Positions 34,973 to 40,322 are shown, numbered from the stretch's first letter. The stretch is 64,000 nt of DNA from Acidobacteriota bacterium (GCA_020851565.1 JADZCN010000020.1:2187-66186), one strand, 5' to 3'. The notes: generated from the sequence alone by a model not told the origin. Numbers and translations are program-made.

Positions 34973-35057
34973 GACGCCGGGGCTGAAGCCCCGGCGCTCC
35001 GTACCCGAAAGGAGCGCCGGACGATGTACGGAGCGCCGGGACTTCAGTCCCGGCGTC
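34973..35057. repeat. inverted pair of 32-nt REP-like elements
   Basis: GACGCCGGGGCTGAAGCCCCGGCGCTCCGTAC (34973-35004) and GTACGGAGCGCCGGGACTTCAGTCCCGGCGTC (35026-35057). Each has an internal CCGGGRC-TGAA-GYCCCGG hairpin. Together they give a possible ~32-bp stem. Confidence 0.9.
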
Positions 35058-35062
35058 GCGGA

Positions 35063-36163
35063 CTACCGCTTCCGCGCGCGGGTGTAGCGTGGGCCGCGGA
35101 TGGCCAGGTCCACCGCGTCCGACGGGCTCGTCATCGCGAACCCGTCCGCGCGGGCGTCGCGGACGAACTGCGCGTCCACCTTGTGGATGCGCATGCGCAC
35201 GAGCTGGTCCTCGGTGACCGTGACGAAGCCCACGTCCCGCATCTCGCGGATGAAGGCGGGCGTGACCTTGTGGATGCGGAAGCGCACCAGCTCGTCCGCG
35301 GCCAGGCCGCCGAAGCCCAGCGCTTTCAGCTGGTCGATTTCCTCGAGCGACACGCGGTGGATGCGCATCCGGACGTAGTCGTCCGCGCGAAGCCCGGTGT
35401 AGCCCCGGTCCCGAATGCCGCGCACGAACTCGGGCGTCACCTTGTGAATCTGCAGGCGGATGACGTCTTCTGGATCGAGCTCGCCGAGCCCGAGCTGCTG
35501 GAGCGCCCGCACCACCTCGGGCGTCGCCTGATGAATCCGCATGCGAACGAGCGTGTCGGCGTCGAGGCCCTTGAAGCCGAGCGCGGCCAGCTCGCGGATC
35601 TCTGCCGCGGACACGCGGTGGATGCGCATGCGGGTGAGCGTATCGAGCGGCAGGCTGGAATAGCCGGCCTGACCGAGCTCGCGGACGTAGCCCGTCGTCA
35701 CGTCCAGTACCGCCAGGCGCAGCGCATCCTCCGCGGAGAGCGACCGGTAACCCAGCCCGCCCATCGCGCTGAGGTAGGCGGGGCTTGGTGCGAATGTGTA
35801 GCGGCCGGATCCCCGGCCGGCGTCGAACGTGCCGCTGAAGCGGAACGTGCCAGCCTCCCGCGTCCAGCTGAAGCTGACGTCGCGGGCGACGCCGCTGAAC
35901 GCGGAAGGCGGCAACCCCTGCAGTTCCTCGGCCCGGATGCCGAAGCCCCAACGGCTGTCCCCGGCCTCGGTCCGCAGGTTGAACTGGATGCGCGGCTCGC
36001 CGTCGGCGCCGGTCCACGCGTTGCGCTGGTCGGCCGACCAGTCCCCTGATACCGTGGGCGGCGCCTGCGCCTCGATGGTGATGAGCACCGTGGTGGCCCT
36101 GGCGGTGGCGACGAGCGACAGCAGCACGACGATGATCCCGGCAACCCTGCGCATGACTGGCAC
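35063..36163 (-). CDS. exported protein with 7-8 tandem ~29-aa repeats (core LVRMRIHKVTPEFVR)
   Basis: N-terminal signal/anchor and a ~150-aa N-domain. Repeats follow: DTLTRMRIHRVSAAEIRELAALGFKGLDA / DTLVRMRIHQATPEVVRALQQLGLGELDP / EDVIRLQIHKVTPEFVRGIRDRGYTGLRA / ... Confidence 0.7.
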   Translation of the reverse strand: MPVMRRVAGIIVVLLSLVATARATTVLITIEAQAPPTVSGDWSADQRNAWTGADGEPRIQFNLRTEAGDSRWGFGIRAEELQGLPPSAFSGVARDVSFSWTREAGTFRFSGTFDAGRGSGRYTFAPSPAYLSAMGGLGYRSLSAEDALRLAVLDVTTGYVRELGQAGYSSLPLDTLTRMRIHRVSAAEIRELAALGFKGLDADTLVRMRIHQATPEVVRALQQLGLGELDPEDVIRLQIHKVTPEFVRGIRDRGYTGLRADDYVRMRIHRVSLEEIDQLKALGFGGLAADELVRFRIHKVTPAFIREMRDVGFVTVTEDQLVRMRIHKVDAQFVRDARADGFAMTSPSDAVDLAIRGPRYTRARKR

Positions 36164-36233
36164 CTCGCGGGGTTGGACGGGACGGAGGGGCGTCCGGTTG
36201 GAAGGCGCCTTCGCCGCGACTGAAGGCGGGGCC

Positions 36234-36265
36234 GACGCCGGGACTGAAGTCCCGGCGCTCCGTAT
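36234..36265. repeat. REP-like 32-nt element (single copy)
   Basis: GACGCCGGGACTGAAGTCCCGGCGCTCCGTAT in the intercistronic gap. Confidence 0.9.
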
Positions 36266-36278
36266 CTCGCCGGGCGGG

Positions 36279-37106
36279 CTATTTGAGCAAGATGCGCTCG
36301 AAGAAGGCCAGCGCGCGCGGGTCCTTCGACTGGCCCAGCCAGAACATGGCCTGGCGGCGGACCGCGGTGTTGGAGTGATGCTCGGCCACCTCGATGAGCC
36401 GAGGCACGCCCTCGTCCTTGGGCAGCTGGCTGAGGGCGAACACCGCCTTCTTCTTCACCTCGGTATCCGGATCGCGCTCGATGGCCTCGGCAATCGCGGG
36501 GGCGGCGCGCTCGCCGGCCCGCTGGGCCACCCAGAAGAGCGCCTGCCCGCGCACGTGGCTGCTGCCGCCGCTCTTCGCCACGTCCAGCAGCGTCGTTGTT
36601 GCCGAGGGGTCCGCGTGCATGGAAAGGGCGGCGAGCGCCCCGTCGGCCACGCGGCGAGGCGTCTCCGCCGTGGCGAAGCGTGAGAGCAGCGCCACGCTCT
36701 GAGGCGCGGCGACATCCGTGATCCAGGTCACGGGCAGCCCGCCCGCGTCGATGGCGCACCCCTCGGAGAGCATCCGGATGCGGGTGACGGCGCGGCCGTC
36801 CACGCGGTAGAGCACATAGAGCGCGTCAGGCCCTTCGAGCTTGACGGACGTCGGCATCGGGCGCGAGCCCGACCCGTTCCAGTCGCAGATGAAGCGATCG
36901 CCCTCGATGATGGGCACCTCGTATCCAATCCACGCGCGCGCGGTGGCCGCCGCCACGCCTGCATCGAACACGCGCGCGAGGTTCCCGCCTGCCGGCTCGA
37001 CGCGCACCTGCGCGTTGGTGAGCATTGCCGGCTGCGCGGCCGCAGACGAGCCGACGAGGACCATGGCCGCCAGCAGCGCGGCCGCGGCTCGAGTGTTTTC
37101 AGTCAT
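36279..37106 (-). CDS. exported HEAT-repeat protein
   Basis: Start MTENTRAAAALLAAMVLVGSSAAAQ. C-terminal HEAT-like repeats (VRGQALFWVAQ..., VKKKAVFALSQL..., VRRQAMFWLGQS...). Confidence 0.75.
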   Translation of the reverse strand: MTENTRAAAALLAAMVLVGSSAAAQPAMLTNAQVRVEPAGGNLARVFDAGVAAATARAWIGYEVPIIEGDRFICDWNGSGSRPMPTSVKLEGPDALYVLYRVDGRAVTRIRMLSEGCAIDAGGLPVTWITDVAAPQSVALLSRFATAETPRRVADGALAALSMHADPSATTTLLDVAKSGGSSHVRGQALFWVAQRAGERAAPAIAEAIERDPDTEVKKKAVFALSQLPKDEGVPRLIEVAEHHSNTAVRRQAMFWLGQSKDPRALAFFERILLK

Positions 37107-37113
37107 CCCCTCG

Positions 37114-37185
37114 CCCCCTGATCCCTGATCCCTGATCCCTGATCCCTGATCCCTGACCCCTGACCCCTGACCCCTGCCCCTGACC
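37114..37185. repeat. CCCTGAT/CCCTGAC 7-mer tandem array (~10 units), G-rich on the transcribed (minus) sense
   Basis: ctgatcc x5, ctgaccc x3, ctgcccc, ctgacc. Fills the intercistronic gap between the two HEAT genes. Confidence 0.9.
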
Positions 37186-37186
37186 T

Positions 37187-38533
37187 TCACTTCCCCAGAA
37201 TCTCCATCAGGTAATCCGTCGCCACCTTCGACTTCATCAGCGACAGCTTCTGGACCAGGTCCTTCCGCATCTCGATGTCGGTTTCCTTTCGCGCGATGGC
37301 GACGAGCGATTCGGCGTTGCCCTGGACGAAGAGCGCCTGCACCACGGTGCGCTTGATCTCCGGATCCTTCTCCTTCTGGTAGAGAGCCACCAGCGCCTCT
37401 CCCGTGCGGGACACGCCCATCGTCCCGAGGTGCCGGACCGCGGCGCGGCGCAGCTCCGCGTTCGGCTCGCTGTTGGCGAGCTCGATGAGGCGGGTGGCGT
37501 CGCCGCCGACGAAGAGCGCCTGCAGGATCTGGCGCTTCACTTCCACGGTGGCTTCCTTCTGATAGAGCTGCCGGAGCTCCTCGCGGGCGCCCATCACGCC
37601 GAGTTGCCGCACGGCCTCCTGGCGCAGCTCCGGCGCCTTCTCGCCGGTGGCGGCGGCGAGCACGCGCTCGCGGTCGCCCGAGATCATGTAGGCGCGGAGG
37701 ATCTGGCGCTTGACGTCCACATCCGCCGTGGCCTGGTAGATCTCGCTCAGCACCTGCCGGCTCTCGCGGCCGCTCATGCCGATGTACTGGATGGCCTTGC
37801 GCTGCAGATCCGGGTTCGCGTTCCCGCGCGCGATGTCGGTGATCACCTTGCGCGCCTCGGGGGACGAGCTCTGGGCGAGCACGAACAACGCGCGCTCCTT
37901 GAGCCGCGGCGACTGGTTCCCCTGCAGGAACTTCTGCAGCATGGGCACGGCCTGCGCGGGGTCGGAGTTCTGCAGGCCCTGGATGGCCAGCAGCTTCAGC
38001 TCCTCGTCGGCCTGCGCCTCGGGCCGCACGGGCTGCCCGGCGCCCTGGCGGAGCTCGATCTCGAGCGCGCGGGCGTCGCCCAGCCAGCGGCTCGAGGGGA
38101 AGCCCTTCGTCAGCTCGCTCAACGTGGCCAGCGCGTCGGCGTGCTGGGCGAGCTTGCCCTGCGCGTAGGCCAGCCAGTACATCGCGGCGTCCACGCGCGA
38201 CTGCTTCGCGTCCACGACCTGGCGGAAGCGCTCCGCCGCGCGCGCCCACTGGGCGCTCTCGAGGGCTTCCTGCCCGGCCTCGTACTGCCGCTCGGCGCGC
38301 TGACGCCGTCCTTCGTCCTGCTGGCGTGCGGCCTCCGCGCGCTCCTGTGCGGCCTCCGCCCTCTCGCGCTCGCGGGCGCGGGCGGCTTCGCTCAAGGCCC
38401 GGGCCTCGGCCCGCGCCTCGGCTTTCGCTTCGGCCTGCGACTGCTCACCGGGGTCTGCGCCCAGCGCGACAGCCGGGGCCGCGGCGACACACAGTATCGC
38501 GATTGCCGCAAGGGACTTCCTCGATACGCTCAT
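37187..38533 (-). CDS. exported coiled-coil / TPR-like / HEAT-repeat protein
   Basis: GAGGTGG RBS. Signal MSVSRKSLAAIAILCVAAAPAVALG. Charged AEAKAEARAEARA...RERERAEAAQERAEAARQ stretch, then repeated HEAT-like units (VKRQILQALFVGGD..., IKRTVVQALFVQGN...). Confidence 0.75.
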   Translation of the reverse strand: MSVSRKSLAAIAILCVAAAPAVALGADPGEQSQAEAKAEARAEARALSEAARARERERAEAAQERAEAARQQDEGRRQRAERQYEAGQEALESAQWARAAERFRQVVDAKQSRVDAAMYWLAYAQGKLAQHADALATLSELTKGFPSSRWLGDARALEIELRQGAGQPVRPEAQADEELKLLAIQGLQNSDPAQAVPMLQKFLQGNQSPRLKERALFVLAQSSSPEARKVITDIARGNANPDLQRKAIQYIGMSGRESRQVLSEIYQATADVDVKRQILRAYMISGDRERVLAAATGEKAPELRQEAVRQLGVMGAREELRQLYQKEATVEVKRQILQALFVGGDATRLIELANSEPNAELRRAAVRHLGTMGVSRTGEALVALYQKEKDPEIKRTVVQALFVQGNAESLVAIARKETDIEMRKDLVQKLSLMKSKVATDYLMEILGK

Positions 38534-38557
38534 CGATCCACCTCTGATTCCGTCAGT

Positions 38558-38675
38558 GTCGCCGGGGCTGAAGCCCCGGCGCTCCGTACTCGCCGCCGGT
38601 ACTCGTGCCCATGTGCGCGGCGCTCCGTACTTGCGTACCCGGCGCTCCGTACTCGCCGCCCCGGCGCTCCGTACT
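38558..38675. repeat. REP-like element plus three extra GGCGCTCCGTACT copies
   Basis: Full 32-nt element at 38558-38589. The 13-mer GGCGCTCCGTACT recurs at 38619, 38641 and 38663. Confidence 0.9.
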
Positions 38676-38690
38676 GCTCTGCGGCGGTCC

Positions 38691-39500
38691 TCACGACTCC
38701 GGCGCGCGGAGGGCCCGGGGGGCCCGCTCGCGCTCGCGCACTTCCGCACCCACGACGCGCATGCGGAACAGGATGCCCCGCTGCTCGATGCGCGCCTTCA
38801 ACAGCTGCAACTCTTCAGACGAGGCGTCCCCGGATCCGTTGGCAATCTCGATGAGCACGCGCTCGAGGTCGTCCAGCACGTCGGCCAGCGCCGACTCGCC
38901 GGCCTGTTCGGCCGACTGGCGGATCAGGCGGTTTGCCGCAACCAGGTCCGCCGCGCGCTCGCGCTCCGCGGACAGGCTCCCCGGATCGGCGTCGTCTGCA
39001 TTGAGGAGCTCCACGATCACCATCTGCGATCGGTCGAGGTGATCCCCCATCGCAACCAGCAGCACGCCCTCGGGCCGCGCGTCGCCGGCGGTCCCGGCCG
39101 GCGCCGTCGCCACGGATTCCGGCGGCGGCGCCACCCCTGGCGCGCCGGACCAGCGCCCGGCCACGAACGCCGCGATCACGAGCGCCGCGAGGCCGCCCGC
39201 CAGCGCCAGCCCGCGGAGGCCCAACCACGAGGCCCATCCGCCCTGGCGCGAGCGCCGGCTCTCGATGAGAGGCTGCACGCGCGCCCACATCACGCGCTCG
39301 AAGCCGTCCGGCGCCTGCGGATCCGCGTCCGCGGTGACCAGCCCGAGGACATGCCGCAGACGGTCCAGCGCCTCGCGGCACTCCGCGCACTGCGCCAGGT
39401 GCGCCCCGGCCTCGCGCTGCTGCTCGTCGGTGTCCTCGCCGTAGTGATGGAGGACCAGCTGGTCGTCGGTCAGGTGCGGCATACGATCGTCTCTGGTCAT
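38691..39500 (-). CDS. anti-sigma factor (zf-HC2, single-pass membrane)
   Basis: ATGA overlap with the sigma gene stop. HLAQCAECREAL zinc-finger motif. TM LALAGGLAALVIAAFVAG. Helical periplasmic C-domain. Confidence 0.75.
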   Translation of the reverse strand: MTRDDRMPHLTDDQLVLHHYGEDTDEQQREAGAHLAQCAECREALDRLRHVLGLVTADADPQAPDGFERVMWARVQPLIESRRSRQGGWASWLGLRGLALAGGLAALVIAAFVAGRWSGAPGVAPPPESVATAPAGTAGDARPEGVLLVAMGDHLDRSQMVIVELLNADDADPGSLSAERERAADLVAANRLIRQSAEQAGESALADVLDDLERVLIEIANGSGDASSEELQLLKARIEQRGILFRMRVVGAEVRERERAPRALRAPES

Positions 39501-40084
39501 GAACACCCCGCGCCCTTCCCGGTGGCAAAGGGCTCGAGGGCGGCCCGCATCTTCCGCACCGCGCGGAAGATGCTGTGCTTCGTCGCACTGGCCTTGAGGC
39601 CCAGCGCCGCGCCCACCTCCTCGATGGACATTCCCTCCAGGTGGCGCAGGGTGAAGGCCGCGCGTTCGAGCCCGGTGAGCCGTGCCATCGCCTCGACCAC
39701 GCGGGCCTGGATCTGCCCGCCCTGGGCCAGCCGCTCGGGCGTAGGCTGCGAGTCCGCCCCGATCTCGCCCAGCGCGCCCTGCTCGAGGTCCGCCGGGTCG
39801 TGCGCGTCCTCCCGGTGGCGGCGGGCCCGGATGAAATCGATGGCGCAGTTCACGGTGATCCGGTGCAGCCACGTGCGCACGTCGGCGCGCTCCTCGAACC
39901 GGGCCAGCTGCCGGTGGGCCTTCAGCCACGCCTCCTGGACGACGTCCTCGGCGTCGGCGGCGGAGCCGGTCAGGCGCGCGGCGACGCCGAAGAGGTAGCG
40001 GCTGTGCCGCTCCACGAGCCAGCGGAACGCCTCGCCGTCGCCGTCCCGGGCCCGGGAGACGGCCGTCCGGTCACTGTCGTTCAT
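39497..40084 (-). CDS. ECF-type RNA polymerase sigma-70 factor
   Basis: Start MNDSDRTAVSRARDGDGEAFRWLVERH. Region 2 (DVVQEAWLKAH) and region 4 (MSIEEVGAALGLKASATKHSIFRAVRKMR). Confidence 0.9.
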   Translation of the reverse strand: MNDSDRTAVSRARDGDGEAFRWLVERHSRYLFGVAARLTGSAADAEDVVQEAWLKAHRQLARFEERADVRTWLHRITVNCAIDFIRARRHREDAHDPADLEQGALGEIGADSQPTPERLAQGGQIQARVVEAMARLTGLERAAFTLRHLEGMSIEEVGAALGLKASATKHSIFRAVRKMRAALEPFATGKGAGCS

Positions 40085-40128
40085 CCCTGAAGCTTGGACG
40101 AGGTTCGGGGGATTTGGTTGGCGGGACT

Positions 40129-40224
40129 GGGGCGTGGGGTCTTGGGGCTTGGGGTCTTGGGGTCTTGGGGTCTTGGGGTCTTGGGGTCTTGAGGTCTTGA
40201 GGTCTTGAGGTCTTGAGGTCTTGG
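40129..40224. repeat. GGGGTCTT / GAGGTCTT 8-mer tandem array (~11 units)
   Basis: ggggtctt ggggctt ggggtctt x5 gaggtctt x4. G-rich on the plus strand, upstream of the ECF sigma gene. Confidence 0.9.
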
Positions 40225-40322
40225 AGGCCTGGGTCCTAGTCCACCCGGACCGGACGGAGAAGGCATCGGTCCGGCCGGGTGTCCTGCGGGGGCACGGCGG
40301 TTCCTGGTCAAAAGCGAACGAT

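Follow-up and report, generated by a model that had tools for sequence, protein, structure and literature searches.

In many soil bacteria, systems built on sigma factors of the extracytoplasmic function (ECF) type form the main route by which the envelope is sensed. In the RpoE-RseA-RseB(-RseC) system of Escherichia coli, an autoregulated ECF sigma factor is paired with a single-pass anti-sigma factor, and a co-transcribed periplasmic protein binds the outer domain of the anti-sigma factor and gates its inactivation; the CnrY-CnrX-CnrH system of Cupriavidus metallidurans (and likewise NccYXH) joins an ECF sigma factor, a membrane anti-sigma factor, and a helical periplasmic protein in one operon; and SigW-RsiW of Bacillus subtilis couples an ECF sigma factor, autoregulated from an AAC...CGT-type promoter, to a single-pass anti-sigma factor with an N-terminal HxxxCxxC motif (the zinc-associated anti-sigma, or ZAS, motif). 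Here we describe a locus that shares these traits, presumably including the gating of the anti-sigma factor, in the Acidobacteriota, a phylum that is abundant and barely studied. The locus lies in a 64,000-nucleotide stretch of DNA from an Acidobacteriota bacterium (GCA_020851565.1, JADZCN010000020.1:2187-66186; hereafter the window, in whose coordinates positions are given unless a contig is named), and its close homologues are assigned, under the names given by their sources, to the Vicinamibacterales. As far as gene order and predicted protein features tell, the conserved unit is a cassette of four genes, encoding an ECF sigma factor, an HxxxCxxC anti-sigma factor, and two exported HEAT-repeat proteins (HEAT1 and HEAT2); a fifth gene downstream, which encodes a protein of tandem 29-residue repeats (the repeat protein), stands apart from it under a predicted promoter of its own in the same sequence class.

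The case for a four-gene unit comes from gene neighbourhoods across the phylum. HEAT2 serves as a marker for the cassette, and homologues of it occur in 58 of 301 genomes, or about one-fifth, in an even sample of the phylum. Among 20 loci around HEAT2 homologues from different genera and families, with genes assigned by BLAST, 15 carry sigma, anti-sigma, HEAT1, and HEAT2 genes in identical order and orientation; in three more the sigma gene and the two HEAT genes were recognised and the anti-sigma position holds an unassigned open reading frame (ORF), and two lack the cassette. Because the cassette genes overlap or sit a few bases apart in these loci while the flanking genes vary from one locus to another, the cassette is better understood as a functional unit than as inherited synteny. 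A full-text literature search turned up no account of exported HEAT proteins as partners in an ECF system, and the passages available from the main text of the 2021 ECF re-classification, where the word HEAT occurs once, give no HEAT gene context (its supplementary group descriptions lay outside the search).

The individual products agree well with a first-pass annotation of the window, which had proposed the five genes as one signalling module. All five co-directional minus-strand ORFs are present (Table 1), and the ATGA overlap between the anti-sigma start and the sigma stop follows from their coordinates. The sigma factor matches Sigma70_r2 (E 2.8e-21, 75.5 bits) and Sigma70_r4_2 (E 1.2e-11, 44.5 bits) in Pfam and no other domain, and it scores 98 bits against the general ECF model TIGR02937 (cut-off 42.9); with only sigma-2 and sigma-4 domains in 195 residues, an adjoining anti-sigma gene, and an AAC/CGT-type promoter, it belongs among the ECF sigma factors. 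Its nearest paralogue in its own genome is only 37% identical. The anti-sigma factor had been called a zf-HC2 protein, and here the motif and the family part ways: the HxxxCxxC motif is present in the N-terminal domain (AHLAQCAEC, that is, H-x3-C-x2-C), with equivalent motifs kept in orthologues, but the zf-HC2 score (PF13490, 14.6 bits) lies below its cut-off of 22.2, as does that for NF052375 (31 bits, cut-off 100). With one hydrophobic segment (residues 91-118) and about 150 residues C-terminal of it, the protein is predicted to be a single-pass membrane protein with a helical extracytoplasmic domain of about 150 residues. A sequence search of the PDB gave it no useful relative; RsiW was the best match but insignificant.

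The three non-regulatory products each begin with a hydrophobic, signal-like segment, in keeping with the signal peptides claimed for them, and family and structure searches bear out the remark that they carry no catalytic motif: none matches a catalytic family or has a solved close relative. In HEAT1 the signal-like N-terminus is followed by a charged coiled segment, a TPR/YbgF-like stretch (weak matches in Pfam), and HEAT repeats (HEAT_2, E 2.6e-19); a sequence search of the PDB returned nothing useful for it. HEAT2 opens with a signal-like N-terminus, followed by an alpha/beta domain (about 110 residues) that holds two invariant cysteines (C74 and C117) and then by a PBS-type HEAT solenoid. 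Its AlphaFold2 (AF2) model has a predicted local distance difference test score (pLDDT) of 90.8, and its structural matches are limited to alphaRep, YibA, and CpcE/F-type HEAT proteins, with no enzyme-like match; by sequence, only artificial alphaRep proteins were found in the PDB. The HEAT_2 matches of the two proteins (69.7 and 55 bits, cut-off 27.7) place both in the HEAT_2/PBS-lyase group.

The cassette also has a conserved predicted promoter. In 25 of 29 loci from across the phylum, the motif YAACC-N15/16-CGTCYAA lies upstream of the sigma orthologue, ending 9-17 nt before the start codon, and it occurs exactly twice in the window, upstream of the sigma gene and upstream of the repeat gene. 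Neither a sigma-70 promoter nor a credible terminator emerged from a consensus scan of the region. Across the 6.06-Mb assembly, CCAACC-N15-17-CGTCCAA has five matches, against about 0.7 expected by our own estimate from base composition, and all five lie 5-25 nt 5' of a start codon: those of the sigma gene, the repeat gene, two ADOP permease genes, and a PadR gene. With one mismatch allowed there are 20 matches, 12 of them with a long coding-like ORF within 45 nt, compared with one of 19 matches in reversed DNA; the genes behind the 12 include five ADOP permeases, PadR, a HEAT protein, a HAMP-SpoIIE phosphatase, and a DUF4097 protein. These motif-bearing genes form a candidate regulon, and the motif thereby yields a short prediction of repeat protein, ADOP permeases, and PadR. 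Five of the 59 ADOP-like loci in the genome carry the motif (G000 C37:33745, C85:719, C102:4473, C139:72537, and C146:39588), each as CCAACC-N16/17-CGTCCAA 5-13 nt before the start; ADOP permeases have two MacB_PCD and two FtsX domains each. The PadR gene with an ECF-type promoter is at G000 C128:4759, and a third HEAT-repeat protein of 404 residues (HEAT_2, E 7e-55), at G000 C43:131650-132919 (L073:1706-2920), has the motif with one mismatch.

We suggest, with a probability of roughly 0.6, that the cassette is a positively autoregulated four-gene ECF system in which the HEAT proteins gate the anti-sigma factor, and that the freed sigma factor also drives the repeat gene and possibly ADOP genes. 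The anti-sigma factor would hold the sigma factor at the membrane, and both HEAT proteins would be periplasmic and bind its helical outer domain, where they might determine or transmit the inactivating signal, as RseB does with RseA or CnrX with CnrY. Once freed, the sigma factor would transcribe the operon that encodes it; in this clade its targets would also include the repeat gene and perhaps a number of ADOP-type permease genes. Whatever its exact working, the HEAT cassette combines a clear conserved promoter with two unusual exported HEAT proteins and is apparently unstudied.

Other explanations have to be weighed against this one, beginning with that of the first-pass annotation, in which one operon spans the five genes and its three exported repeat-protein products assemble on the anti-sigma factor as a common periplasmic scaffold for sensing. 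The gene-neighbourhood comparison that it called for divides the proposal: the four-gene order recurs across the Acidobacteriota, but the five-gene order is confined to one Vicinamibacterales clade, so that a co-conserved signalling module stands without the repeat gene. Inside that clade the five genes do share strand and order, in the window's genus and in a sister genus; all three products have signal-like N-termini; and no U-tract terminator separates HEAT2 from the repeat gene. When, in a species-representative genome collection, the 80 homologues nearest to the repeat gene were sorted by position, 32 lay directly after the cassette, all in the one clade, 34 lay elsewhere, and 14 adjoined a divergent DinB-like gene, mostly with an M14 gene downstream, and thus kept the same flanks without the cassette. 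Outside the clade the separation is complete in our samples: none of 20 loci of repeat-protein homologues beyond the window's genus has the cassette within about 7 kb, and none of the 20 HEAT2 loci has a repeat-protein homologue 3' of HEAT2. The repeat gene moreover has its own predicted promoter, placed 3' of a REP-like hairpin, kept across the genus and in 59 of the 80 homologous loci and found also at unlinked copies (L040 and L041; in G171 and G299 the cassette lies on another contig), and it has relatives in BlaI/BlaR1 loci (see below). A single five-gene scaffold is thus improbable. The annotation had also noted, correctly, that every junction 3' of the anti-sigma gene carries a structured repeat, here repetitive extragenic palindromic (REP)-like palindromes and a G-rich 7-mer array, and had read these repeats as built-in regulators of mRNA stability or stoichiometry within the operon. 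Stable hairpins do form at the REPs, shuffled controls fold less well than the G-rich array (z-score -4.8), and REP elements stabilise upstream mRNA segments in enterobacteria. However, both kinds of repeat are dispersed through the whole genome, the REP-like element GGAGCGCCGGGRCTTCAGYCCCGGCG as 49 full copies on 27 contigs and GGGRTCA arrays as 58 on 31 contigs, and the window alone holds about 20 separate tandem arrays in its spacers (10053-63181; 7-9-mer and longer units, which vary between arrays). The three spacers have four REP cores, eight heptamer units, and one REP in the window; in the four closest relatives (87-97% protein identity) the corresponding counts are 0-1 for REP cores and 0-2 for heptamer units. 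The anti-sigma/HEAT1 spacer there is 57-109 nt with 0-1 REP cores, the REP hairpin of the HEAT2/repeat-gene spacer is missing in most relatives, and in other lineages the genes overlap or sit a few bases apart. An operon-specific regulatory device is highly improbable on this evidence, and we infer that the spacer repeats are fast-evolving, mobile, genome-wide elements with no conserved role here.

Closer to the four-gene system proposed above are two explanations that keep the cassette and change what it does. The HEAT proteins could be only outputs of the sigma factor, such as envelope scaffolds or chaperones made on demand, with no part in sensing or in control of the anti-sigma factor: their genes lie under a predicted autoregulated promoter, HEAT solenoids are generic binding scaffolds, and another HEAT protein elsewhere in the genome has the motif. 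Against this, distant families keep the HEAT genes in a fixed order and closely coupled to the anti-sigma gene, as is usual for stoichiometric partners (RseB, CnrX, and CseA, for example), and we consider a pure output role doubtful. Equally, the repeat and ADOP genes could be driven by another ECF sigma factor or a further paralogue, with the place of the repeat gene beside the HEAT cassette a matter of inherited synteny. A second ECF operon on another contig (G000 C101:7851-10228; L076:1851-4215) encodes a sigma factor, an HxxxCxxC anti-sigma factor, a DUF4097 'toastrack' protein, and a small exported protein, and a DUF4097 gene is among the motif-bearing genes. Several observations here weigh against the reading that we prefer. 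The second operon has its own autoregulatory-type promoter, TCAACC-N16-CGTCTAA, conserved in four other genomes, and its 16-nt spacer agrees with the promoters of the repeat gene and the ADOP genes; in this family the spacer of the cassette sigma gene itself is 15 nt, as against 16-17 nt in those promoters. Four genomes (G241 and G317, both 98-99% complete, with G332 and G333) keep the repeat gene and its motif with no detectable cassette, and three of them (G241, G332, and G333) have an orthologue of the second sigma factor at 77-81% identity. Adjacency within the genus is weak evidence of function, given that the shared synteny extends to the unrelated flanks DinB, M14 peptidase, and OtsA. 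Operon continuity and promoter use are, besides, read from the DNA sequence, and binding of the HEAT proteins to the anti-sigma factor from conserved linkage and a shared compartment. On the other side, repeat-gene promoters at almost every one of the 59 loci with the motif read CCAACC/TCCAA like the cassette promoter, not TCAACC/TCTAA; a 16-nt spacer is also found in the cassette promoters of several distant lineages; and the repeat gene is placed directly after the cassette in the whole clade. Cassette and repeat gene occur together in 29 genomes of the phylum sample, about three times the roughly 10 expected if they were independent, a count inflated by kinship and genome size, and within the genus they are present or absent jointly in the 20 genomes searched (the window's included). 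Of 14 genomes in which the repeat gene lies away from the cassette, 10 have a cassette at some other place; this is close to the family background rate of about 60% and favours neither sigma factor. Control of the repeat gene by a different sigma factor seems to us rather unlikely, and we rank the cassette sigma narrowly above the second sigma as its candidate driver.

The repeat protein has a history of its own. Its gene was called from GTG 36163, and ATG 36154 is the likelier true start because a conserved GAGG lies eight bases 5' of it (GAGG-N8-ATG). The protein matches no Pfam and no NCBIfam family. Its tandem repeats, put at seven or eight in the first-pass annotation, are eight units of 29 residues in register from residue 128, and an AF2 model built with 71 homologues (mean pLDDT 92) shows them as a solenoid of eight two-helix units, preceded by a beta domain (residues 38-126). 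A fold search gave no PDB match below E 1e-3, and a lipocalin-like identity for the beta domain was rejected, the matches being insignificant (E about 0.1). Among 20 distant loci, 14 have a repressor of BlaI type and an M56 protease of BlaR1 type directly 5' of the homologue, or the protease fused to it; the repressor domain (PF03965) was confirmed in the one candidate scanned and the M56 domain (PF05569) in eight of nine large neighbouring proteins scanned, and the extracytoplasmic C-terminus of the neighbouring protease consists of the same 29-residue repeats. Because of these neighbours, and of the repeats in the protease C-terminus, we regard the 29-residue repeats as the predicted sensor-side domain of a BlaR1 variant, with a soluble copy that bears the additional beta domain. 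The window's repeat protein itself has no M56 domain and no adjacent M56 or BlaI gene, and so is not a BlaR1/MecR1 member; the two BlaI/BlaR1 pairs in the window's genome neither contain the repeats nor adjoin the repeat gene, and a literature search found no BlaR1 variant with this repeat domain. The repeat protein may be a ligand- or partner-binding solenoid whose fold was attached during evolution to two different envelope-signalling systems, the BlaR1-type proteases and the ECF system. More specifically, though only tentatively and at somewhat less than even odds, the solenoid could be an undescribed extracytoplasmic sensor or partner domain of the Acidobacteriota, which in most lineages would make up the outer part of BlaR1-type proteases beside an adjacent gene for a soluble copy, and whose soluble copy shifted from BlaI/BlaR1 to a HEAT-governed ECF sigma factor in the Vicinamibacterales. 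If true, this would be a swap of regulators around one conserved periplasmic component, and it may join that component with ADOP permeases in an envelope or antimicrobial response; the BlaR1-type link is in any case the first handle on a domain family with neither a Pfam entry nor a structural relative.

Some further features of the locus and its relatives deserve mention. The elements that flank the genes include an inverted pair of REP-like copies (-94.5 kcal/mol, z-score -7.5), which probably either forms the 3' end of the repeat-gene transcript or stabilises it, and an 8-mer array that is missing upstream of most orthologous sigma genes. The palindromic element GGAGCGCCGGGRCTTCAGYCCCGGCG has the marks of a REP, being short, imperfect, intergenic, and present in many dispersed copies. 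DinB is the usual divergent neighbour of the repeat gene, and two repeat-protein homologues, P0015 (593 residues) and P0108 (605 residues), come with a DinB_2 (PF12867) or PF01725 domain, which may be fusions or gene-calling artefacts. At L078, whose repeat protein is 93% identical, about 975 nt separate HEAT2 from the repeat gene (115 nt in the window), owing to an insertion there. In a genome of the same genus (G002:C6:145520-147415; L022) the HEAT2 and repeat-protein genes have in-frame TGA stops and split matches, which may reflect a decaying copy or assembly errors. A precise deletion of the five genes was sought in same-genus genomes that lack them, where the contigs are short or the neighbourhood is different. 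Several records of metagenome-assembled genomes with a Vicinamibacterales-type locus (among L078, L081, L082, L091, L093, L122, L127, L129, and L133) are titled 'uncultured Bifidobacteriaceae', 'Acidimicrobiia', or 'cyanobacterium', and these are probably mislabels.

Table 1. Genes, predicted promoters, and repeat elements of the locus, in window coordinates.
Feature	Position	Strand	Description
8-mer tandem array 5' of the -35 element	40129..40233		not part of the promoter
Predicted ECF-type promoter of the sigma operon	40094..40121	-	-35 CCAACC, 15-nt spacer, -10 CGTCCAA; ends 9 nt 5' of ATG
ECF (group 4) sigma gene	39497..40084	-	195 aa; Sigma70_r2 and Sigma70_r4_2; TIGR02937
Anti-sigma gene, single-pass, HxxxCxxC	38691..39500	-	269 aa; motif, hydrophobic segment, weak zf-HC2
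Anti-sigma/HEAT1 spacer	38534..38690		four GGAGCGCCG REP cores, of which the last alone is the full hairpin element; strain-specific
HEAT1, predicted exported	37187..38533	-	448 aa; HEAT_2, weak TPR/YbgF-like; third cassette position conserved
G-rich 7-mer tandem array, HEAT1/HEAT2 spacer	37115..37185		GGGRTCA on the sense strand; fills the spacer
HEAT2, predicted exported	36279..37106	-	275 aa; HEAT_2 and HEAT_PBS
REP-like hairpin, HEAT2/repeat-gene spacer	36236..36264		without U-tract
Predicted ECF-type promoter of the repeat gene	36173..36201	-	CCAACC, 16-nt spacer, CGTCCAA
Repeat protein, predicted exported	35063..36163	-	beta domain and eight 29-aa two-helix repeats with RMRIHxV core
Inverted pair of REP-like copies 3' of the repeat gene	34973..35057		stem of about 35 bp

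Set beside the described systems, the cassette differs from each. RseA, unlike the cassette anti-sigma factor, has no HxxxCxxC motif, and RseB is a beta-rich, LolA-like lipid binder, whereas the cassette partners are HEAT solenoids and there are two of them. CnrX is a small membrane-anchored four-helix metal sensor and CnrY a very short anti-sigma factor, both unlike their counterparts in the cassette, where no metal-binding motif is evident and the gene order differs. RsiW has no dedicated exported partners and is controlled through the proteases PrsW and RasP. The comparison with BlaI/BlaR1 (MecI/MecR1) concerns the repeat protein, whose distant homologues have their genes immediately 3' of those for a Penicillinase_R repressor and a Peptidase_M56 protein; the sensor of BlaR1/MecR1 is a penicillin-binding domain, whereas the outer end of the acidobacterial M56 protein is made of 29-residue repeats, and the window's repeat protein has no M56 domain, its gene lying under a predicted ECF-type promoter instead of beside a BlaI/BlaR1 pair. 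Finally, the C-terminal halves of both HEAT proteins resemble, by sequence and fold, the PBS-lyase-type HEAT proteins (E. coli YibA, CpcE/F, and alphaRep). The known members of that group are cytoplasmic, whereas HEAT1 and HEAT2 have signal-like N-termini, additional N-terminal domains, and a linkage to an anti-sigma gene.

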